Assembly (NCBI GenBank): GCA_018969615.1
Contig: JAGWYA010000005.1
Span: 1,286-65,285, forward strand
Direction: 5' to 3'
Length of the DNA: 64,000 nt
From: Patescibacteria group bacterium
GTDB lineage: Bacteria; Patescibacteriota; Minisyncoccia; UBA6257; 02-FULL-45-10c
A program made the position numbers and the translations under genes. Below the pieces are notes generated by a model. It had not been told where the DNA came from. It searched no databases and saw only the letters and a program-made list of their open reading frames with translations. Shown one piece after another: positions 1,473-63,137 of this stretch; position 1 is the first letter of the stretch, and every line of letters starts with the position of its first letter.

Positions 1473-1529
1473 AACAAGAACCCCTTGTAGCAGTATGGAA
1501 TTTCAACACTGCTGCAAGGGGTTCTTGTT
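1473..1529. repeat. 22-bp-stem hairpin with a 13-nt loop ATGGAATTTCAAC (reverse complement GTTGAAATTCCAT). Member of hairpin family 1. Lies between convergent genes, so it is a possible bidirectional terminator.
   Basis: Left arm aacaagaaccccttgtagcagt (1473-1494) pairs with right arm actgctgcaaggggttcttgtt (1508-1529), with one G.U wobble. The loop core TTGAAATTCCA matches the loops at 13182, 13234 and 13380. Confidence 0.7.
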
Positions 1530-2570: not shown

Positions 2571-2642
2571 GTCCTCGTAGCTTAATGGATAAAGTATCTG
2601 GCTTCGAACCAGATGATGGGGGTTCGATTCCCTCCGAGGACA
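2571..2642 (+). tRNA. tRNA-Arg (anticodon TCG); no encoded CCA
   Basis: Acceptor GTCCTCG/CGAGGAC. D-stem GCTT/AAGT. Anticodon stem TCTGG/CCAGA with loop CTTCGAA, anticodon TCG. T-arm GGGGG-TTCGATT-CCCTC. Discriminator A. Confidence 0.85.
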
Positions 2643-2880
2643 CAAGCACAGGAGATATCACTATGCCATGGTATAGTGATATCTCCATATGTTCTCTGAG
2701 GAATCGAACCAGCCGCACCCCGTATCAGGAAGGAATGGGAAACCGAAGGTGTCCCAGACGGGGGTCGGGGTGCGGCGGAGGTTCGAGTGAGCGAGCGGGC
2801 CGTCTGGCCGCGAGTGAAACTGACATTCCCCGAGGACACAAGCAATATATATCTCACTATGCTTTGGCATAGTGAAATAT
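2626..2880 (+). repeat. tandem duplication of the tRNA-Arg 3'-end. The 15-mer CCGAGGACACAAGCA occurs at 2634-2648 and 2829-2843. Each copy is followed by a related palindrome: TCACTATGC-N-GCATAGTGA.
   Basis: Direct comparison of 2626-2690 with 2821-2880. The first palindrome, GGAGATATCACTAT..ATAGTGATATCTCC, is a perfect 14-bp stem. Confidence 0.7.
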
Positions 2881-2922
2881 ATACGTGTTCATTGAAGGGA
2901 ATCGAACCATCATAAAATATGA

Positions 2923-2967
2923 GGTCTTACAGAACAGCGCCGGGTTCTTATGCTGTTCCGTAAGACC
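2923..2967. repeat. hairpin family 2 member (a): 16-bp stem GGTCTTACAGAACAGC/GCTGTTCCGTAAGACC. Reverse-complemented loop is ATAAGAACCCGGC.
   Basis: Inverted repeat with one mismatch. The loop matches the conserved 13-nt loop GTAAGAmCCCrGy seen at 3021, 18516 (rc) and 18599. Confidence 0.65.
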
Positions 2968-3001
2968 ACCTATTTTATTTTTTACTGACGAGCCGGGAAA
3001 G

Positions 3002-3052
3002 GGCATAAACGTTTTCCGCCGTAAGACCCCGGTGGCGGAAAATGTTTATGCC
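3002..3052. repeat. hairpin family 2 member (b): 19-bp stem GGCATAAACGTTTTCCGCC/GGCGGAAAATGTTTATGCC. Loop GTAAGACCCCGGT.
   Basis: Inverted repeat with one mismatch. 13-nt conserved loop. Confidence 0.7.
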
Positions 3053-3121
3053 TTGATAGCGGCGAGTGGCGCTGTTCCCAGAGGACATCGCTGTATTATT
3101 CGGTATACTAAAAGAGAAGTT

Positions 3122-4591
3122 ATGGAAAAAATTGAAGAAAAAAAAGAGGTTCGAACTATCGCCGCGGTATTGGAACATGCGGGCTTTGAGGCGTATTTGG
3201 TCGGCGGCTGTGTCCGCGATCTTTTGCTCGGCCATACGCCGAAGGATTGGGATATCGCAACGAACGCAACGCCGGACCAGGTCCAGCAGTTGTTTCCTGA
3301 CAGCGTCTATGAGAATGCGTTCGGCACCGTCGGCGTGAAGACCGATTCTGAAGATCAGACACTGAAGATCGTGGAGGTTACGACCTATCGCATCGAAGGG
3401 AAGTATTCCGATATGCGCCATCCGGACGAGGTTCGCTTTGCGTCCACGATCGCCGAAGATCTTTCCCGCCGCGATCTTACGGTGAACGCGATGGCGATGG
3501 ATCTCCGGGCCGGCGCGGCTCATGAGATCATCGATCCGTTCCAGGGGCGGCAAGACCTTCGCGCGCGCGTGATCCGCGCGGTCGGCGATCCCGAGGCGCG
3601 GTTTCAGGAAGATGCGTTGCGTATTTTACGCGCGGTGCGGTTCGGGGCGCAGCTGGGATTTACGCTGGACCATGCGACCGAGGCGGCGATGAAAAAACAT
3701 GCGGGATTACTTGAAGCGATCTCGAAAGAGCGCATCCGGGATGAGTTCATGAAGATGATCATGACGGATCACGCGCATGAGGCGATCCGCTTGATGGAAA
3801 AGGATGGAATATTGAAATATGTGCTGCCGGAATTGGAAGAGGGTGTGGATGTCGGACAGAATAAGCATCATATCTACAGCGTGTTCGAGCATAATGTGCG
3901 GGCGCTTCAGTATGCGGTCGAACAGCATTTTGATCTGGATGTGCGCATTGCGTCGCTGTTGCATGATGTCGGAAAACCGCGGAGCAAGCGGGGGGAAGGA
4001 CCGGATTGTACGTTCTACGGTCATCAGGTCGTCGGTGAGCGGATGGCGCTTCAGATCCTTGACCGTTTGCGGTTTCCTAAGGACATGACGGAGCGGATCG
4101 CGCTTCTCATTCGCGAGCATATGTTCGTCTATGATCCCGATACGGTGACCGATGCCGGCGCGCGCCGCCTGGTGCGCCGCGTCGGAAAGGAGAATTTGGA
4201 AGCGCTTTTCCAGGTTCGTGAAGGCGACCGGATCGGTTCCGGTGTTCCCAAAGCGCAGCCGTACCGGTTGCGTCATTTGAAGTTTCGTATTGAAAAAGTG
4301 AGCAAGGATCCGGTGAGCGCAAAGATGTTGAAAGTGAACGGCGCGGACGTGATCACGGGGGCGGACATGGCTCCGGGACCGAAGGTTGGTTTTATTCTCG
4401 CGATCCTTTTAGAGGAGGTGCTTGATGACCCGTCGCTGAACACGAAGGAGATACTTATGGATAAAGTGCGCCAGCTGGCTCAGCTGGATGAGGTGAAGTT
4501 ACGGGAGATGGCGAAGTTCGCCAAGCGTTCCGCTGACGACGCGCAGACCCGCATCGAAGAGGAAATGAAAAAGAAATATTTCGTCCAGTAG
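3122..4591 (+). CDS. cca: CCA-adding enzyme: tRNA nucleotidyltransferase / poly(A) polymerase family, with an HD domain
   Basis: N-terminal nucleotidyltransferase motif GGCVRDLLLG...DWD. HD-domain motifs (HHIYSVFEHN..., LLHDVGKP). The ORF-track start at 2885 runs through non-coding hairpins, so the start is trimmed to ATG 3122 (MEKIEEKK). Confidence 0.88.
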   Translation: MEKIEEKKEVRTIAAVLEHAGFEAYLVGGCVRDLLLGHTPKDWDIATNATPDQVQQLFPDSVYENAFGTVGVKTDSEDQTLKIVEVTTYRIEGKYSDMRHPDEVRFASTIAEDLSRRDLTVNAMAMDLRAGAAHEIIDPFQGRQDLRARVIRAVGDPEARFQEDALRILRAVRFGAQLGFTLDHATEAAMKKHAGLLEAISKERIRDEFMKMIMTDHAHEAIRLMEKDGILKYVLPELEEGVDVGQNKHHIYSVFEHNVRALQYAVEQHFDLDVRIASLLHDVGKPRSKRGEGPDCTFYGHQVVGERMALQILDRLRFPKDMTERIALLIREHMFVYDPDTVTDAGARRLVRRVGKENLEALFQVREGDRIGSGVPKAQPYRLRHLKFRIEKVSKDPVSAKMLKVNGADVITGADMAPGPKVGFILAILLEEVLDDPSLNTKEILMDKVRQLAQLDEVKLREMAKFAKRSADDAQTRIEEEMKKKYFVQ

Positions 4592-5755: not shown

Positions 5756-5906
5756 AATAAAAACGCCCTATCGGGCCGTTTTTATTTTTTTTCAAAACAT
5801 TCTCTAAGGATCCTGAGACTGGGGCATTTCGCCGTTGAGGGATCCTTAGAGGATGTTATAATTTGCCGTGAATCGAACCCGGGACCGCCGGGATCGAAAC
5901 TCCCGA

Positions 5907-13155: not shown

Positions 13156-13418
13156 AAAGCAGGGCAGGTGTATATTTCTGTATTGAAATTCCACACAGAA
13201 ATATACACCTGCCCTGCTTTGACGAATTTCTGTATTGAAATTCCGCACAGAAATAGATATCCACCCTGTTCTTTTGGTGGTATATATGGTGTTACCGGGA
13301 AAGAAAAAGTAAGTTTTTGCTCTGTTTTTAAAGAATGTTTTTGGATGACAAAGAAAGCAAGGCAAGGACACATTTCTGTATTGAAATTCCACACAGAAAT
13401 TTGTCCTTGCCTTGCTTT
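13156..13418 (+). repeat. array of three family-1 hairpins sharing the 13-nt loop ATTGAAATTCC(A/G)C and the inner stem ATTTCTGT/ACAGAAAT. Hairpin A (13156-13220) has a perfect 26-bp stem. Hairpin B (13224-13252) has only the 8-bp inner stem. Hairpin C (13354-13418) has a 26-bp stem with one mismatch. The outer stems of A and C differ by compensatory changes.
   Basis: Left and right arms aligned by hand. A: aaagcagggcaggtgtatatttctgt / acagaaatatacacctgccctgcttt. C: aaagcaaggcaaggacacatttctgt / acagaaatttgtccttgccttgcttt. Confidence 0.85.
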
Positions 13419-14294: not shown

Positions 14295-14575
14295 GGGAGG
14301 CACTGTTTACGGGGAAATGCGGCGCCTCAAAAACGCTTCGTAACACCGTAAAGAGATACTCGTTATAATAAGGGTACTGTGAGTGTGGTTATTCACAGCG
14401 CAATGGTTTCTGGAAGATCGCAGCTTAATATATACTAAAGATATAGAGGATTCAGTGTGAGGCTGGATCTAATATACGTATAAGTTGCTGGAAATGAGCA
14501 CCGTTCGACCGGTATTCATTTCCAGCCGCTTGTTCATTTATTAGAGACTCGCTTCACGGCGAGTCTTTATCTTTC
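14295..14575 (+). ncRNA. candidate small non-coding RNA or long 5' leader, bounded by the promoter at 14265 and the terminator at 14543-14575. Contains a strong internal hairpin (14487-14526).
   Basis: Only ORFs of 16 codons or fewer. Hairpin GCTGGAAATGA...TCATTTCCAGC. Terminator agagactcgc-ttcacg-gcgagtcttt plus a T-run. Identity unknown: not RNase P, tmRNA or an obvious SRP RNA. Confidence 0.35.
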
Positions 14576-14745
14576 TCTCAACGATACTTGGAAAAATTAT
14601 TCGGTTTACTAAGGTCGGCCTCGCAAAGCGGGGATGGTAAACGAGGATAATTTTATGAAACGGTTTCCTTATAAAAACGTATTAAAATTTATTAGATTCA
14701 AAAATTCTTCATAGGGTAACGGGTCGAAACGGTACTTTATGGGGA

Positions 14746-18404: not shown

Positions 18405-18446
18405 ACCAAAACCCCTCCCTTGTGGAGGGGTTTTTGGTTTCCTTAT
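18405..18446 (+). terminator. rho-independent terminator after the surface-protein gene
   Basis: Stem aaccaaaacccctccc/gggaggggtttttggtt with loop ttgt, followed by a T-run. Confidence 0.8.
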
Positions 18447-18492: not shown

Positions 18493-18551
18493 GATCCTGA
18501 TCCTCTCGCGGCAGCACTGGGGTCTTACGCTGCCTTAAGAGGATCAGGATC
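18493..18551. repeat. hairpin family 2 member (d): outer stem GATCCTGATCCTCT/AGAGGATCAGGATC, inner stem GGCAGC/GCTGCC. Loop ACTGGGGTCTTAC, reverse complement GTAAGACCCCAGT.
   Basis: Inverted repeats with a small internal bulge. 13-nt conserved loop in minus orientation. Confidence 0.65.
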
Positions 18552-18578
18552 CTTGCCCGGAGAACTCGTAGAGGGAGA

Positions 18579-18631
18579 AGCAGATCATTTTTTATAACGT
18601 AAGAACCCGGTGTTATAAAAAATGATCTGCT
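18579..18631. repeat. hairpin family 2 member (c): perfect 20-bp stem AGCAGATCATTTTTTATAAC/GTTATAAAAAATGATCTGCT. Loop GTAAGAACCCGGT.
   Basis: Perfect inverted repeat. 13-nt conserved loop. It is oriented opposite to member (d), which lies 28 nt upstream. The (a)/(b) pair at 2923-3052 has the same arrangement. Confidence 0.75.
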
Positions 18632-18687
18632 GCTCACCTGAGCGCTTTGTGGAATTTAAGTACCACTTTTGGTACTATGTTTTAGTT

Positions 18688-20394
18688 ATGCTGGAACGCC
18701 TCAAAACTTATCTGACTGCCCGGAACCTTTTGATCGCCGTATTGGTGTTCGGTTCGCTGATCCGATTCTGGGGCGTGGGAACCGCGGAGATCTTCAATGA
18801 CGAAGGGTTCTACGCGTTCCGTTCGATCGGCTATCTGGATTACATCCAGAACGTCAGCCAGACGACCCCGATCCAGTGGTTTCAGAATACGGTAATGCCG
18901 TGGTGGACGCATTTGTCGTTCCATGACGTCCCGCCGCTGTTCTTCATGGTGCAGCATTATTTCTTTATGCTGTTCGGCGATTCGCTGTTGGTCGCGCGGC
19001 TCCCGTCGCTTCTCGCCGGGATCGGGACGCTGCTGCTGATGTATTATATCGGGAAACGATTGTTCCAAAATGAATACGCCGGCGTGCTCGCCGCGGCGCT
19101 TCTGGCGGTGAGCAATATGCATATCTGGATCTCGCGTTCGTCGCTGATCGAAGGATTGGAGGTGTTCATCATCGCGGGTGCGATCCTGATCTTTTTGCAT
19201 TTTTTGGAGGACCGGAAAAAATGGTGGCCGTGGCTGGGAGTTGCGTTGGGCGCCGCCGCGCTGACCAAATACACCGCCGTGTTCATCGTGCCGGTGTTTT
19301 TGATCGTTCTGCTGATGCGCGACCGGAAGCTGCTTCTGGCGGGCGAGTTCTGGTATGCAGTGGTGCTTGCGGCGATCCTGTTCTCGCCGGTGATCGTCTA
19401 TAACATTGAGATGTATCATGCGGTCGGTCATTTTGATCTTCAGTTCGCGTATCTGTTTCATCAGGCGACCCCGGAGTGGCAGGCGTCGCTCGGAAAGGTC
19501 CAGGACCCGTTCGGGAATATCGGGAGCAATCTTTTGGCGATGTATTCGATCCCGTTCCTGGTGCTGGCGTTCGGCGGATTCGTACTCGGCCTCGTGGAAT
19601 GGTTTAAAAAGAAAAGCGGCGTTGCGCAGATGCTTCAGGCGGCCGAGTCGTATCTGGGCATTGGTGATCACGGAAATGAATGGGCTCCGCTTGCGGTCAG
19701 CGCGGTGATCCTGATCACGCTCATGCTGGTGGCGGTGGGGTCGGCCTACCGGTTCCTGGCGCTCTACAGCATCTTTTTTGTGATCCTGGCGGTCGCAGCG
19801 CTCTGGGAACTTCGGAAGATCGATGATATCCGGGGATGGTTCGTACTGATCGTGATCGCGCTTTTGGCATACCAATTATATTTTGCGATCGACGGCATTT
19901 TCATGACTTTCCCGGATTTCGGTATCGTGAAGCTCGATGCGTATTTTTCTCAGGGGTTTAACGGGATGCGCTCGGCCGATCCGCCGCAGTCGTCGAATCC
20001 TCATTTGGAACAGGTGATCAAGGATAATCTTTCGTTGGTACCGGCAAGTTCGACGCCGTTCATGATCGTCTATGATGAGAACGTCGCCTTGTCCGCGCGG
20101 CTGTGGCTGTTCACGCGGCGGATCTATTACCACGGCATTTCGGCGGTGACGACGGGGCAGTTCAAGTCATTGCTTCAGTCGAACCAGGCGGCGCTCAAGG
20201 GGATCACGGTCTATTTCGTGAAAGCGAGCCAATACACCTCGCTCAATCCGTATTTAAGCGTTCCCGATGCCTCTGATCTTACAGCATTCCTGACCGCTCC
20301 TTCGGCGAACGGGGGGTTGGGTCTTACGCCGGCGGCAACGATCACCGGATATGACGGATTGCCGATGTTCACGGTCTATAAGTTCACGATGTAA
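18688..20394 (+). CDS. GT-C membrane glycosyltransferase. ArnT/PMT-like, family GT39/GT83: a dolichyl/undecaprenyl-phosphate-sugar-dependent transferase.
   Basis: About 11 TM helices. Conserved first-loop acidic motif (IFNDEGFYAFRS). Large C-terminal periplasmic domain. Start trimmed to MLERLKTYL (18688), because the track ORF start overlaps hairpin (c). Confidence 0.82.
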   Translation: MLERLKTYLTARNLLIAVLVFGSLIRFWGVGTAEIFNDEGFYAFRSIGYLDYIQNVSQTTPIQWFQNTVMPWWTHLSFHDVPPLFFMVQHYFFMLFGDSLLVARLPSLLAGIGTLLLMYYIGKRLFQNEYAGVLAAALLAVSNMHIWISRSSLIEGLEVFIIAGAILIFLHFLEDRKKWWPWLGVALGAAALTKYTAVFIVPVFLIVLLMRDRKLLLAGEFWYAVVLAAILFSPVIVYNIEMYHAVGHFDLQFAYLFHQATPEWQASLGKVQDPFGNIGSNLLAMYSIPFLVLAFGGFVLGLVEWFKKKSGVAQMLQAAESYLGIGDHGNEWAPLAVSAVILITLMLVAVGSAYRFLALYSIFFVILAVAALWELRKIDDIRGWFVLIVIALLAYQLYFAIDGIFMTFPDFGIVKLDAYFSQGFNGMRSADPPQSSNPHLEQVIKDNLSLVPASSTPFMIVYDENVALSARLWLFTRRIYYHGISAVTTGQFKSLLQSNQAALKGITVYFVKASQYTSLNPYLSVPDASDLTAFLTAPSANGGLGLTPAATITGYDGLPMFTVYKFTM

Positions 20395-22346: not shown

Positions 22347-24036
22347 GCGACCGGCTATGCGTACGTGGTTCAGGCCGAAATATGTGCTGATCGCGATCCT
22401 CGCGGTTGCCTTTGCGTTGCGGTTATGGGGGATCGGGAATACGGATATGCTCGGCGATGAAGCGGCTGATGCGTTCCGATCCGTCGGGTATATCGATTAT
22501 CTTGGAACGAGCGCCCAAACGCAGCCGATCGATTGGTTTAAGGATTCTCCGACGCTTCCCGCCTGGACCTCGCTGTCGTTCCATGATGATCCGCCGCTGG
22601 GATTCATGGTCCAGCATTCATTCTTTGCGTTCTTCGGCGATTCATCGACAACCGCGCGTCTCCCGGCGGTTCTTTTTGGTACGCTGGCGGTTTGGCTGCT
22701 CTATGAGATCGCTAAAAAATTGCTCGTGCGCGACCATCGCGGAAGAGATGATCTGTTGTCCGGCAATGCCGTCGAAGGCATCGCGCTTCTCGCGGCGGGA
22801 CTGTATGCGATCGAACCGGCGACAGTGGGTATTTTCCGGACTGCGCTTTTGGAGCCGATCCTCATTTTTTTCGTACTACTGAACCTTTGGTGTTTTCTGA
22901 AGTTCGTTGAGGACCGCCGCTGGTGGTGGCCGTTCGGATTGACCCTGGGAGCGGTTGCGCTGACCAAATATACGGGCGTATTCCTGGTGCCGCTGTATGC
23001 GCTGTACCTTTTTCTGTATGATCGGAAGTTGTTCCGGAGCTGGCGTTTGTATGCGGCGCTTTTGCTGACGGTCATTCTGTTCTCGCCGGTGATCATCTAT
23101 AACGCCCAGCTGTTTCAGGCGCGCGGCCATTTCGATCTGCAGTTCGCCTATCTGCTGCATCAGGCAACGCCCGAATGGACCGGTCTCATCGGGAAAACAC
23201 AGGCGCCGTTCTCGGCGATCATTCCGAATCTGATCACATCCTACGGGATCCCGTTCCTTGCAATGGCGCTTGCCGGTCTTGTCATCGCAGGGATCTGGTA
23301 TCGGAAATATCGCAGACAGGGGATGCTCTTTGTGCTTGCCTATGTTTTATTCTTGGGGCTGCTGTTGGTAAAGATCGGTTCGGCATCCCGTTTTCTGGCG
23401 ATGCTGGGACCTGCGTTTGTGATCCTTGCGGCCATCGCGTTATGGTCTCTGGCCGTGTTTCCGCGCGTTTCGCGTACCGGCCGGTACGCGCTGGTGCTTG
23501 CGGCGGCGCTCTTTATGGCTTATGAGGCGGGCGTTGCGATCGACCGGAATATCGTTTCCTATCCATCGTATGGCGTTGCGGGATTGGACAACTATTTCTC
23601 GCAGCAATTCAGCGGTATTGAGTCTGCGGTCATTCCGGAGGCCGATAATGTGCATCTGACGGCGATCACTAAGGAGTTCGCGGCAAAGAAATCAGCGATC
23701 GCGCCGCGGAAATTGGTGATGATCGTGTATAACGACCAGATAGCCCTTCCGACATTGGAATGGGTGTTCTATCGCCGTTTCTTCTATCATTCGATCCCGA
23801 CGATGTATGTGCAGAACTTTGAAAGCGCTTTGAAAGCGAATCCGACGCAGTTCAATGGTTTTACCGTTTATTTCGTGCAAACGACGCCGCATACCCTTTT
23901 GGACCCGTTCCGGGCGAACGATACGGCCGGCGATGCGTTTGAGCAGCAGGTCATCGCCAACGGCGTGCAGCCGGACGCGGTCATTTACGGCACCGGCCAT
24001 CAGGAAATGTTCCGCGTATACAAGTTTACACTGTAG
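22336..24036 (+). CDS. GT-C membrane glycosyltransferase. ArnT/PMT-like GT39/GT83, a paralogue of the gene at 18688..20394.
   Basis: Same architecture and first-loop motif (MLGDEAADAFRS). Shares many conserved blocks with the 18688 protein (e.g. HFDLQFAYL.HQATPEW, VYKFT). The start may be the Met at 22357. Confidence 0.82.
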   Translation: MANRRPAMRTWFRPKYVLIAILAVAFALRLWGIGNTDMLGDEAADAFRSVGYIDYLGTSAQTQPIDWFKDSPTLPAWTSLSFHDDPPLGFMVQHSFFAFFGDSSTTARLPAVLFGTLAVWLLYEIAKKLLVRDHRGRDDLLSGNAVEGIALLAAGLYAIEPATVGIFRTALLEPILIFFVLLNLWCFLKFVEDRRWWWPFGLTLGAVALTKYTGVFLVPLYALYLFLYDRKLFRSWRLYAALLLTVILFSPVIIYNAQLFQARGHFDLQFAYLLHQATPEWTGLIGKTQAPFSAIIPNLITSYGIPFLAMALAGLVIAGIWYRKYRRQGMLFVLAYVLFLGLLLVKIGSASRFLAMLGPAFVILAAIALWSLAVFPRVSRTGRYALVLAAALFMAYEAGVAIDRNIVSYPSYGVAGLDNYFSQQFSGIESAVIPEADNVHLTAITKEFAAKKSAIAPRKLVMIVYNDQIALPTLEWVFYRRFFYHSIPTMYVQNFESALKANPTQFNGFTVYFVQTTPHTLLDPFRANDTAGDAFEQQVIANGVQPDAVIYGTGHQEMFRVYKFTL

Positions 24037-24065
24037 GCAGTGGCCCGTAGGGAGTAGGCAGTAGT

Positions 24066-24093
24066 AAAAATTCCGCTGAAGGGCGGAATTTTT
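24066..24093. terminator. bidirectional terminator between convergent genes
   Basis: Stem AAAAATTCCGC/GCGGAATTTTT. A/T runs on both sides. Confidence 0.75.
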
Positions 24094-24139
24094 ATTGGAA
24101 ATTGGATATTGGAAATTATTTCTTCCTACTGCCCACGCG

Positions 24140-25330
24140 CTACTTGCTACGTACTATTTTCTCGTACACTTCCTCCGTCTTTTTCACCATCGTGGTGAGA
24201 TTGAATGATTTGCGGACAGCGGCGTGCGCTGTTTTTTCGATCTCGCGGGCGATCGACGGATTAGCGAGGAGTCCGGTGATCGCATGAGCAAGTTGTGCCG
24301 GGTCGCGCTGAGTGATCATGATGCCGTTCTCATGGCTTTTGATGATCTCTGGGATGCCCCCGGCCTCGGTGACGATGATCGGCAGCTCGGCCGCCATGGC
24401 TTCCAGGAGAATATACGGAAGACCTTCTTTGATGGAGGACATGACGAACATATCAAAGGCCTTCAGATACCGCGCATCATCTCCGGACGGCGGAATAAAA
24501 AAGAATCTATCGCTGACGTTCGACTTTTGACTTTCGACTTTTAGTTTCGGTAATTCCGGTCCATCGCCGATGATGAAGAAAACGCCGCGGGGGACCAAAG
24601 CGGCCGCGCGGATGAGCGTTTCATAGTTCTTTTCCTTGACGATACGTCCGATCGAACCGATCCAAACCTCTCCGACATTTGACATTTGACGTTCGCCGCC
24701 TTCAGCGAGCCTCGCCCCTGGCGGGACTTTTGACTTGCTTAAAATTTCTTCCCGGGCCTTTTCTTTGCTCAGAAATTTTAAGCTTGGATCGATGCCGTTA
24801 TGGATCATGGTGATCTTGTGATCGGGTGTGATGTGAAGTTGGCGGGCAAGCGCGGCATCGTATTCAGAAACGCAGATGATCGCATCCTGGAATTTCGCTG
24901 TGAGCATATGGAGGGCGATATAGAACCAGCGGATCGGTCCTGCGATCGCATTCGTCGGATTGAAGACCCAGCCATGCGCCGTGAAGACGACTTTGATTGG
25001 ATGACTTTCGACTTTAGACTTTCGACTTTTGACTTTATATATTCTGGCCGCGATCGCGCCTAATACCCCGGCTTTTGAACTATTGAGATGAAGAACGTCC
25101 GGCTGTTCGCGTTTGAGAAGGCGGACGATCTCCGCGACCGCGAGCCAGTCATTCGCGAACAGAAACCACGGACGCGTGGCGTTGGAAAGCCAGCGAAGGT
25201 CCTTTCCGCCATAGACGATCTTTGCTTCAAAGCGGTCCCGGGGGAGGCTTTGAGCAAGATCGGTGACGTATTTTTGCGCCCCGCCGACATCGGCTTTCGT
25301 GATTAGATAGAGGACTTTTATCTTTTTCAT
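24140..25330 (-). CDS. GT4-family glycosyltransferase (group-1 glycosyltransferase). Carries three internal heptamer-repeat tracts (24513-24548, 24672-24736, 24988-25045).
   Basis: C-terminal GT4 motif EGLPYILLEAMAAELPIIVTEAGG. N-terminal GT4 domain. The repeat tracts translate as SAKVESQKSNVSD, MSNVGE and KVKSRKSKVESHP. Confidence 0.88.
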   Translation of the reverse strand: MKKIKVLYLITKADVGGAQKYVTDLAQSLPRDRFEAKIVYGGKDLRWLSNATRPWFLFANDWLAVAEIVRLLKREQPDVLHLNSSKAGVLGAIAARIYKVKSRKSKVESHPIKVVFTAHGWVFNPTNAIAGPIRWFYIALHMLTAKFQDAIICVSEYDAALARQLHITPDHKITMIHNGIDPSLKFLSKEKAREEILSKSKVPPGARLAEGGERQMSNVGEVWIGSIGRIVKEKNYETLIRAAALVPRGVFFIIGDGPELPKLKVESQKSNVSDRFFFIPPSGDDARYLKAFDMFVMSSIKEGLPYILLEAMAAELPIIVTEAGGIPEIIKSHENGIMITQRDPAQLAHAITGLLANPSIAREIEKTAHAAVRKSFNLTTMVKKTEEVYEKIVRSK

Positions 25331-61370: not shown

Positions 61371-63137
61371 ATGGCTCTTGAACAAAACGACATTACTCCG
61401 TTCGGCATCATAAACTTCCGCAATCAGCGGAAGGAATTCGGCATCAAGATGGATGACCGCCGCCGCCACATGTACGTGGTCGGAAAGACCGGTATGGGCA
61501 AGTCCAACCTGCTGGAGAACATGGTGATCGCCGATGTCCGGGCAGGCAAAGGCGTCGCCGTGATCGATCCGCACGGTGAGTTTGCGGAGAAGATCCTGGA
61601 TTATATCCCGGAGAACCGCATTGACGATGTGGTGTATTTCAATCCGTCGGATACGAAATATCCGGTTGCGTTCAATCCGCTGGAGCAGGTGAGCCCGGAG
61701 TTCCGCCACTTGGTGGCCTCGGGCATTATGGGTGTGTTCAAGAAGATCTGGGTGGACGCCTGGTCCGGCCGTATGGAATATATCTTGAACAACACGCTGC
61801 TCGCGCTTTTAGAATCGCCGGGCTCCACGCTCCTCGGGATCATGCGCATGCTGAATGATGCGAAATACCGCAAGGCCGTCGTCGATAACCTGAAGGACCC
61901 GGTCGTGAAGGGCTTCTGGGTGAACGAGTTCGGCAAGTGGAACGAGAAGTTCCAAACCGAAGCGACCGCCGCCATTCAGAACAAGGTCGGTCAGTTCGTG
62001 ACCAATCCGCTGATTCGCAACATTCTCGGCCAGGCGCATTCGTCGCTTGATCCGCGCAAAGTGATGGACGAGGGGAAGATACTGATCGTGAACCTTTCGA
62101 AGGGCCGCATCGGCGAGGATAACTCGGCGCTGCTCGGCGCGATGATGATCACGAAGCTTCAGCTCGCCGCGATGTCCCGCGTGGATGTGCCGGAAAAGGA
62201 CCGCCGTGATTTCTATCTCTACGTCGACGAGTTCCAGAACTTTGCGACCGATTCGTTTGCGAACATTCTGTCCGAGGCCCGCAAATACCATCTGTGCCTG
62301 ATCGTCGCGCATCAGTACATCGGCCAGCTGACCCATGATTCGAACACGCGCGTGCGCGATGCGATCTTCGGTAACGTCGGTACGATGGTGGTGTTCCGCG
62401 TCGGCGCGGAGGACGCCGAGTTCCTGGAGAAAGAGTTCCAGCCGGACTTTATGGCTGCCGATTTCGTCGGCCTTCCGAAATATAATTTCTATACCAAGCT
62501 GCTCATTGACGGCGTGTCATCGCGCCCGTTCTCCGCATCGAGCATTCCGCCGTATCAGCGCGGAGAAACGATCTATACCGACGTGATCATCGAGAACAGC
62601 CGCCGCGTGTACGGGACGACGAAAGAAATGGTGGAAGAGAAGATCGCGACCGAATGGCTTTCATCGAGCAGTGATGTCGTTGAAGGGAAGGTAGCGCGCC
62701 GCGGCGAGCGCCCGCTGTCATCCGTCTTGAAGCCGCGCACCGACGCGCCGCGGAGAGGCGATCAGTTTGAACCGCGCCGTGACCGTCCGCAGGGAAGACC
62801 TGAGGGAATGTCGCAGGCTTCGCGCGGACCATCTCGTGGTGAGCATGCCGAACCACGCCCTGATCGTATGCCGCCGAGACAAGAACAGCCGCGCCCGCAG
62901 CCGGCAGCGCCGCGTTCTGAAGAGCTCCGCCCTGAACCGCAAAAACCCGCAGCTGGCCTGCCGCTTCCGCCGCGCCCTCCGCGTCCGGAAGGTCCGCGTC
63001 CCGAAAAGAAGAAAGTGAACATCGACGATCTTCGTGCCGCGCTTGAGCGTTCATTGAACGCCGCCAGCGCCGCGAAAGAACCCGAGCCCGATGAGCTTGA
63101 TCCCTCCCAGCTCGACGAAGTCCAGGACAGCGAATAA
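61371..63137 (+). CDS. TraD/VirD4/TrwB-like type IV secretion coupling-protein ATPase (DUF87/T4SS DNA-transfer family) with a Pro/Arg/Glu-rich disordered acidic C-terminal tail
   Basis: Walker A VVGKTGMGKSNLL. Walker B FYLYVDEFQNF. LIVAHQ motif. An ~150-aa low-complexity tail ending in an acidic stretch (…EPEPDELDPSQLDEVQDSE). Confidence 0.78.
   Translation: MALEQNDITPFGIINFRNQRKEFGIKMDDRRRHMYVVGKTGMGKSNLLENMVIADVRAGKGVAVIDPHGEFAEKILDYIPENRIDDVVYFNPSDTKYPVAFNPLEQVSPEFRHLVASGIMGVFKKIWVDAWSGRMEYILNNTLLALLESPGSTLLGIMRMLNDAKYRKAVVDNLKDPVVKGFWVNEFGKWNEKFQTEATAAIQNKVGQFVTNPLIRNILGQAHSSLDPRKVMDEGKILIVNLSKGRIGEDNSALLGAMMITKLQLAAMSRVDVPEKDRRDFYLYVDEFQNFATDSFANILSEARKYHLCLIVAHQYIGQLTHDSNTRVRDAIFGNVGTMVVFRVGAEDAEFLEKEFQPDFMAADFVGLPKYNFYTKLLIDGVSSRPFSASSIPPYQRGETIYTDVIIENSRRVYGTTKEMVEEKIATEWLSSSSDVVEGKVARRGERPLSSVLKPRTDAPRRGDQFEPRRDRPQGRPEGMSQASRGPSRGEHAEPRPDRMPPRQEQPRPQPAAPRSEELRPEPQKPAAGLPLPPRPPRPEGPRPEKKKVNIDDLRAALERSLNAASAAKEPEPDELDPSQLDEVQDSE

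Follow-up and report, generated by a model that had tools for sequence, protein, structure and literature searches.

Two loci in a 64,000-nt stretch of Patescibacteria group bacterium DNA (contig JAGWYA010000005.1; the whole stretch is called the window here) each carry a closely spaced pair of long hairpins, and all four hairpins present a common 13-nt apical loop on unrelated stems. The element is real, restricted to a narrow lineage and outside every described family. Tentatively, we favour the reading that these are RNA hairpins recognised through the loop, which would serve as direction-specific terminator, insulator or 3'-end modules at the borders of transcription units. The hairpins, labelled (a) to (d), their loops and the spacers between them are as follows.

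2923-2967, minus strand: hairpin (a), a 16-bp stem with one A.C on the + strand (equal to G.U on the - strand)
2939-2951, minus strand: loop of hairpin (a), ATAAGAACCCGGC
2968-3001, no strand: spacer between (a) and (b), 34 nt, with 69 nt between the 13-nt loops
3002-3052, plus strand: hairpin (b), a 19-bp stem with one G.U
3021-3033, plus strand: loop of hairpin (b), GTAAGACCCCGGT
18493-18551, minus strand: hairpin (d), 23-nt arms interrupted by an internal bubble of 3 nt (CGC/TAA as read on the + strand)
18516-18528, minus strand: loop of hairpin (d), GTAAGACCCCAGT
18552-18574, no strand: spacer between (d) and (c), with 70 nt between the loops
18579-18631, plus strand: hairpin (c), 20 perfect bp, extendable to 24-nt arms (18575-18635)
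18599-18611, plus strand: loop of hairpin (c), GTAAGAACCCGGT

A first-pass annotation of this DNA had reported all four hairpins, and each was present where it had placed them. Its description of the stems as perfect helices of 16-20 bp held for (c) and was a slight overstatement for (a), (b) and (d). The core TAAGAMCCCRG is common to all four loops and the stem sequences are unrelated, as it had claimed, and both doublets have the minus-then-plus orientation that it described, at the loop separations listed above. The loop motif does not occur at chance frequency outside hairpins: the 64 kb contain four exact matches to the core against 0.04 expected from dinucleotide shuffles, and 4/4 are hairpin loops. 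Only two positions match with one mismatch (25061 and 36772), both inside greedily called open reading frames (ORFs) and without a long hairpin. As RNA, the 13-nt consensus reads RUAAGAMYCCRGY, and the wider pattern for the family is YRTAAGAMYCCRGYR. With a covariance model of stem and loop (R1), the four copies scored 49-56 bits, and the next matches in the window, at 25 bits or less, were the reverse strands of the copies or other hairpins. Stems are unrelated among copies, yet 94.6% of the cells pair, and both sides change at 14 of the 14 modelled pairs. Within the loop, positions 1 and 13 are either G..U or A..C, which are isosteric wobbles, and U2 and G12 are invariant. We propose that the sequence-specific part of the element is the apical loop, closed by a C-G pair and the R1.Y13 wobble and probably also by U2.G12, and that any long helix may suffice as its stem. 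The stem of (a) can be extended to 2912-2978 through AUAAAAUA/UAUUUUAU, with A-rich and T-rich flanks on either side. Within a doublet there is no pairing between the hairpins: folding of both doublets gave two independent hairpins with non-complementary arms. One large structured RNA at site 1, in which a stem of tRNA-Arg fragments closes both hairpins, was set aside as a feature of the family, having no equivalent at site 2.

To which form of the nucleic acid this structure belongs is indicated by the strand on which it folds best. Non-Watson-Crick stem positions, read on the loop-sense strand (RTAAGA), comprise eight G.U and three A.C, and the RNA folding energy of the loop-sense strand is the lower one in four of four hairpins. 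The minimum free energies (MFE) were -31.6 (-) vs -26.9 (+) kcal/mol for hairpin (a), with z = -7.0; -30.6 (+) vs -26.2 (-) kcal/mol for (b); -38.7 (-) vs -35.5 (+) kcal/mol for (d); and -28.5 kcal/mol for (c), with z = -9.2. Because most of the stem changes are of the G.U type and folding is better on the loop-sense strand, these results indicate that selection sees the single-stranded form of one specific strand, most likely RNA. The functional form would be a single-stranded stem-loop, again most likely of RNA. Within each doublet the loop-sense strand alternates.

The window was compared with a sister lineage (GCA_021840525.1 and several ENA/Logan assemblies), whose cca and PMT proteins are 91% and 86% identical to those of the window. 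The sister retains (a), (b) and (c) at the same places; of (d) it shows just the right arm, where a contig ends. Identity amounts to 44/45 nt for (a) and 47/51 nt for (b) in sister contig L001, where the loop of (b) is GTAAGACTCCGGT, and to 52/53 nt for (c) in contigs L041 and L042, the one change leading to U.G on the + strand; overall the three hairpins are 92-98% identical with zero indels. By comparison, cca is 84% identical in DNA and 64% identical at third codon positions, and because the hairpins are conserved so much better than these codon positions, the alignment points to purifying selection on them and away from junk DNA. Combined with the G.U-type stem changes, it favours a selected, RNA-like single-stranded structure over selfish repeats. 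Most other intergenic spacers show many indels between the window and the sister, and ordinary terminators at orthologous positions differ in sequence. The spacer between (a) and (b) is identical at 30/34 nt, and that between (d) and (c) is poorly kept, at 18/34 aligned columns, a poly-G run in the sister contigs included. A third strain, L004, has the same loop in hairpin (b) and a different right arm. Four sister contigs (L003, L004, L041 and L042) start or end inside family hairpins and two have the poly-G run between (d) and (c), both of which are probably assembly or sequencing artefacts at palindromes.

The conserved loop on variable stems, the strand-specific folding and the strong conservation would also be expected of small regulatory RNAs (sRNAs) in which the loop is a kissing or base-pairing seed, or a repeated site that titrates a protein. 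Repeated loops titrating a protein are familiar from the GGA loops of CsrB/RsmZ. If one transcript spanned a doublet, 12/13 positions of one loop would be complementary to the other. There is also precedent for sRNA families defined by loop motifs (PMC4615179), and in the rhizobial 'cuckoo' sRNAs conserved loops stand on variable stems. We nevertheless regard this explanation as unlikely: the loop-sense strand alternates in the doublet, so that identical loops would not recur on one transcript; apart from the loops themselves, the window offered no complementary target; no promoters were identified; and stems of 16-24 bp exceed those of the usual seed-presenting sRNA hairpins.

Copies that the window lacks are present in the sister. 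An indel of 140 nt between (b) and cca contains a minus-oriented 'third' copy; this copy has its inner stem and bubble in common with (d), and the outer stems are different. A second sister-only copy (L041 5660-5719) is plus-oriented, starts 16 nt past a stop codon and is flanked by an A-tract and a T-tract. It stands as a single copy between convergent genes, in the exact position of the window's ordinary bidirectional terminator at 24065-24094; in this one case an ordinary terminator is replaced by a family hairpin. In the more distant relatives GCA_028865335.1 (cca 77%), L044, L064 and L005, the model search found no family hairpins, and site 2 of GCA_028865335.1 is 'empty', with a 111-nt spacer; the family is seen in two sister lineages only. 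The differences in presence and absence between the sisters make a mobile or copy-generating component possible. Near the second sister-only copy, a module of two hairpins, aagccgaccc(a/t)tgtcggctccccgact(t/g)tggtcggggct, occurs as a tandem pair at L041 5740-5840 and is missing from the orthologous window spacer 24036-24140; judged by this comparison, turnover of intergenic hairpin modules in the lineage is fast.

Three further features define the surroundings of the doublets.

2571-2643, plus strand: tRNA-Arg(TCG), which precedes doublet 1; downstream of it come tandem modules, each closing with a copy of the tRNA 3' end
3082-3109, plus strand: promoter-like AGGACA-16-TATACT, 30 nt 3' of (b) and 13 nt 5' of the cca ATG, a consensus match only
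18408-18434, plus strand: ordinary intrinsic terminator of the upstream 1209-aa peptidoglycan-binding gene

Both doublets lie upstream of a gene start, as first described. Doublet 1 is placed between tRNA-Arg and cca, hairpin (b) ending 70 nt before the cca ATG at 3122. Doublet 2, because of the terminator at 18408-18434, lies between the end of the 1209-aa gene's unit and the start region of the next gene, which encodes a GT39/PMT protein; here (c) ends about 55 nt before the ATG at 18688, the start of database protein P0121. All window copies are in intergenic DNA, with a terminator or tRNA on the upstream side and the start region of the following gene on the other. This position directly before gene starts, and the near-equal loop spacing of 69 and 70 nt, are what a double-stranded operator might show, in which inverted 13-bp motifs about 82 bp apart from centre to centre bind a regulator of the downstream promoters and the palindromes are incidental. 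We consider such an operator very improbable, since single copies stand away from promoters (e.g., L041 5660, with convergent genes on either side), the motif coincides in every copy with the tip of a long palindrome, and stem conservation together with wobble-type changes is not explained by a site in double-stranded DNA.

Our preferred reading, of RNA hairpins at transcription-unit borders, can be put as follows. The loop would be recognised by a factor peculiar to the lineage, more likely a protein than another RNA, and the hairpins would terminate or insulate transcription or protect 3' ends in a direction-specific manner. Of the two hairpins in a doublet, the + one would deal with read-through coming from the upstream unit, and the - one with antisense or divergent transcripts from the downstream promoter. 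The hairpins would accordingly have to be transcribed and, once bound, to affect termination or stability. Ordinary terminators of the window genome have 16-20 bp perfect stems and loops of 3-4 nt. Compared with an intrinsic terminator, i.e., a G+C-rich hairpin followed by a U-tract, L041 5660-5719 conforms and (a) does so roughly, with T-rich tails on both strands. We count the A-rich and T-rich flanks of (a) in favour of a terminator or insulator, as we do the terminator replacement at L041 5660-5719 and the occurrence of the same architecture, in a second hairpin family (F1, below), at terminator positions of the same genome. Several observations weigh against this reading. Three of the hairpins, (b), (c) and (d), are without U-tracts, and a canonical terminator already stands ahead of the doublet at site 2. 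For the - strand hairpins to be made as RNA, transcription would have to run antisense to all neighbouring genes, and no convincing candidate emerged for a promoter that could drive it. With eight G.U against three A.C the tally is a small one, and DNA hairpins tolerate G.T pairs too. No candidate loop-binding protein was identified. Finally, the stems have changed by about 4% since the split of the two sister lineages, while paralogous stems are completely unrelated; because the stems have barely changed since that split, their unrelatedness does not come from ordinary divergence of duplicates.

F1 has a 13-nt loop, ATTGAAATTCCAC, at 13156-13220, 13227-13254 and 13354-13418 on the plus strand and at 1473-1529 on the minus strand, and in the sister at L001 993-1037. 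Its inner stem is conserved (TTTCTGT/ACAGAAA), its outer stems are variable, its loop positions 1 and 13 are A..C or G..T, and its copies follow stop codons and terminators. Aligned position by position with the TAAGAMCCCRG family, the F1 loop reads RTWRRAMYYCSRY. In the orthologous copies after the AhpC gene (window 1495-1507 vs L001 1009-1021), the inner 11 loop nucleotides are inverted, TGGAATTTCAA vs TTGAAATTCCA, with positions 1 and 13 unchanged and the outer stems replaced, which looks like a hairpin-mediated flip-flop. In contig L043 of GCA_028865335.1, inverted repeats of about 110 bp (1-110 and 1590-1710) surround a large serine recombinase gene (218-1723) beside a tRNA; each repeat holds the palindrome GTGGAATTTCC-GCAA-GGAAATTCCAC, whose half-site equals 10 nt of the F1 loop core GAAATTCCAC. 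One more hairpin of the window, at 5796-5857, has the form AACATTCTCTAAGGATCC...GGATCCTTAGAGGATGTT with a 26-nt loop. Its minus strand has ATCCTCT(T)AAGG and the loop heptamer CCCCAGT in common with hairpin (d), so that it may be a relative of (d) with another loop.

Several of these observations would also suit miniature palindromes that act at the DNA level and have a lifestyle like that of repetitive extragenic palindromic (REP) sequences. The loop would then be the recognition or cleavage site of an enzyme acting on single-stranded DNA (ssDNA) and encoded elsewhere (an HUH/RAYT-like nuclease, a transposase or a recombinase), and placement of a loop cassette into the single-stranded tips of long terminator-type hairpins would yield one loop on unrelated stems. 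Suitable recipients exist in the ordinary terminators with their 16-20 bp perfect stems. Presence and absence differ between the sisters, as seen for the 'third' copy in the 140-nt indel and for L041 5660 without a window counterpart; site 2 is empty, as a 111-nt spacer, in the 77% relative; and the distribution is very narrow despite the unrelated stems. The likeness of (d) and the 'third' copy in inner stem and bubble, with unlike outer stems, agrees with such a history, as do the position of site 1 amid tandem tRNA-Arg 3'-end copies resembling integration scars, the recurrence of the F1 loop core as a palindrome half-site in the serine-recombinase inverted repeats, and the same conserved-loop/variable-stem logic in HUH Rep origins. 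Even so, we hold this DNA-level explanation to be doubtful, if the most plausible of the alternatives. Neither the 64 kb window nor the sister loci encode a transposase, HUH nuclease or integrase, the orthologous copies appear to be under strong purifying selection and not decaying, and no pair of copies is near-identical, which leaves no sign of recent transposition. Mobile units are not known to be as short as 13-21 nt. Nor was the loop found in hairpins of the other collections scanned with strict patterns (IMG/VR, species genomes and JGI metagenomes).

The first-pass annotation had likened the doublets to REP doublets (REPINs) or to the subterminal hairpins of IS200/IS605 elements, and neither relationship stood. 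REP sequences and REPINs have a stem sequence common to the copies, loops that vary, doublet halves that pair, hundreds of copies and an associated RAYT gene. There is some likeness to these proteobacterial elements and to bacterial interspersed mosaic elements (BIMEs): all are short extragenic palindromes after genes or between transcription units, often in inverted doublets, the REP elements are proposed to function in termination and in protecting mRNA 3' ends, and copy content varies between close relatives. The present family differs in that the loop alone is shared, the copy number is just 4 in 64 kb and a RAYT gene was not seen in the window. The stems of its copies are unrelated and its doublet halves do not pair. 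A tag is also lacking: the tag at the REP foot is a conserved GTAG or CGTC tetranucleotide (PMC3733652), and neither was present at the flanks of (a), (b) and (d), GTAG occurring only 9 nt upstream of (c). The left-end and right-end subterminal hairpins of IS200/IS605 elements lie on the same strand and flank tnpA and/or tnpB. Here the loops are on opposite strands, the hairpins are 27-34 nt apart with no ORF between them, and the window gave no Pfam match to Y1_Tnp or TnpB. The remark that the conserved-loop/variable-stem logic is unusual was borne out, and the element fits no described family that was tested.

That logic is shown by HUH Rep origins. The nonanucleotide loop of geminiviruses and circoviruses, the double-strand origins (dso) of pMV158 and pT181 and the CS-6 loops of ssoA likewise combine a conserved loop, a free stem and reading of one strand; they differ in that each replicon has one, beside a rep gene, with the loop as nick site, whereas this family has several chromosomal copies in both orientations. 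Loops read by proteins or RNAs provide another likeness (the histone mRNA 3' stem-loop with SLBP, the iron-responsive element, lambda boxB, the CsrA-binding GGA and the 'cuckoo' sRNAs), in that specificity lies in the loop and the stem merely pairs, and some of them sit at mRNA 3' ends; their sequences are unrelated to this one, and the stems here are far longer (16-24 bp), on both strands and in inverted pairs. For neither the Rep origins nor these loops does anything found here point to membership. Integron attC sites are alike in being recognised as folded single strands and in having sequence-variable copies. They are marked by extrahelical bases and, at the foot of the stem, by conserved R''/L''-L'/R' boxes (RYYYAAC/GTTRRRY), follow cassette ORFs near intI and have no conserved loop. 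The family copies have no conserved boxes at the stem base, there is no integrase in the window, and no cassette-like ORFs precede the hairpins.

TIGR arrays, which are frequent in Patescibacteria (the candidate phyla radiation, CPR), have variable palindromic stems, a tigRNA loop made up of two variable 8-12 nt spacers with box C/D, and an adjacent tas gene with a Nop domain (PMC12045711; bioRxiv 10.64898/2026.09.09.750476). The host phylum is the same, conservation is limited to the loop region, and variable palindromic stems with conserved loop nucleotides give a superficial resemblance; the F1 loop UGAAAUUCCA also happens to begin with UG and end with CCA, as TIGR loop repeats do. That the hairpins are tigRNA units of a stem-loop array guiding a Tas protein is nonetheless barely conceivable. 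The family loop has 13 nt and is conserved in all copies, too short and too invariant for two variable spacers with box C/D, and no tas gene or Nop/Tas protein is present in the 64 kb window or, as a protein, in the sister loci. The hairpins are scattered and strand-alternating, not arrayed, and the loop motif is absent from the supplementary files of the TIGR paper. Membership of TIGR-Tas was therefore rejected on loop length, loop invariance and the missing Tas gene.

Gene content was assessed by Pfam scans of essentially all ORFs of the window, which returned no transposase, consistent with the earlier statement that RAYT and TnpA are missing, and no HUH nuclease, integrase or Nop/Tas protein; envelope glycosylation genes were among the results. 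A RAYT gene was found neither in the window nor in the sister and relative loci, about 45 kb in total; the called genes of the sister loci included no Nop-domain protein, and no Rep or relaxase gene adjoined the hairpins. The sole gene of the conjugation or DNA-transfer type in the window, at 61371-63137, encodes a TrwB/TraG-type type IV secretion coupling protein. Rfam detected tRNAs only in the whole window at gathering score, and a relaxed limit (E up to 10) around site 1 brought out nothing but generic noise of the miRNA-precursor type.

Each site has further peculiarities. The region 3' of tRNA-Arg, 2634-3090, contains hairpin modules and direct and inverted copies of the tRNA 3' end and T-arm: three direct copies of the 3' end (CCCTCCGAGGACA, TTCCCCGAGGACA and TTCCCAGAGGACA), two inverted copies of the T-arm (GGAATCGAACCA at 2700 and 2898) and a hairpin, ATATC(T)CACTATGC...GCATAGTGA, present at both 2651-2686 and 2846-2883. 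One module of 196-198 nt is missing from the sister genome, and the tandem modules look like integration or duplication scars. The -35-like hexamer of the promoter-like stretch at 3082-3109 falls in the tRNA-Arg 3'-end-like repeat TTCCCAGAGGACA. Upstream of tRNA-Arg, a 147-aa ORF of the sister (L001 1946-2389), for which there is no Pfam match, seems split in the window into 2062-2271 and 2259-2522, which may be a frameshift or a pseudogene. Around doublet 2, no convincing direct repeats or target duplications were found, and no orthologue of the 1209-aa gene was recovered from the sister. The leader of that gene (14300-14700; L064 1130-1700) is long and kept even in a distant relative (PMT 59% identical), and contains a hairpin with a compensatory change (GCTGGAAATGA/TCATTTCCAGC vs GCTGGAGAT/ATCTCCAGC); it is a candidate structured leader RNA, without an Rfam match.

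Searches beyond the window gave no further family members. The single-loop pattern CGTAAGAMCCCGGTG had 31 matches in IMG/VR, 0 of them with a flanking stem, and a CAG-closed single-hairpin pattern had 19 matches in JGI metagenomes, 0 of them in a hairpin. The doublet pattern had 4 matches among 185,579 species genomes (GTDB), none of them family hairpins: 2 were chance matches in coding DNA, and the remaining two lay in alphaproteobacterial elements resembling miniature inverted-repeat transposable elements (L037 5000-5100 and L038 630-735), with terminal inverted repeats GTCATRGCCGGGTTCTTATCCCGGC about 93 bp apart, which have CCGGGTTCTTAT in common with the loop by coincidence. The patterns used on species genomes and JGI metagenomes were strict, and diverged loops would escape them. 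A blastn search of both doublets against phage and plasmid collections gave no match, and a viral origin was rejected on this result and on the stemless matches in IMG/VR. The idea that the stems are spacer-like guides, in the manner of short hairpin RNAs, was rejected: the 19-20 nt arms of (b) and (c) had no exact match in IMG/VR, the 16-mer of (a) matched there at about the chance rate, and within the window and its relatives only 11-12-mers were shared, at chance level. Since the sister contigs break exactly at the hairpins, elements of the family are probably under-represented in short-read metagenome-assembled genomes.

With ordinary divergence of duplicates excluded as the source of the unrelated stems, the common loop must have come onto the different stems independently, and recipient hairpins exist because ordinary terminators already have 16-20 bp perfect stems. 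A more speculative idea, which we think improbable, is that the 13-nt loop and the pairs closing it form a portable address tag whose history is separate from that of the stems, copied or grafted by lineage-specific machinery into the single-stranded tips of unrelated, pre-existing long terminator hairpins. If true, grafting would make ordinary terminators addressable by a factor, F1 would have arisen in the same way, and a cis-regulatory RNA or ssDNA signal would spread, in a way previously undescribed, without the movement of a whole element. Patescibacteria have tiny genomes, and their transcription and RNA control are little understood. In this setting, the confinement of conservation to the loop, the signs of selection, the strand alternation at transcription-unit borders and the narrow lineage suggest an undiscovered loop-reading factor, which could be a termination or insulation protein, an RNA-stability protein or an ssDNA enzyme.

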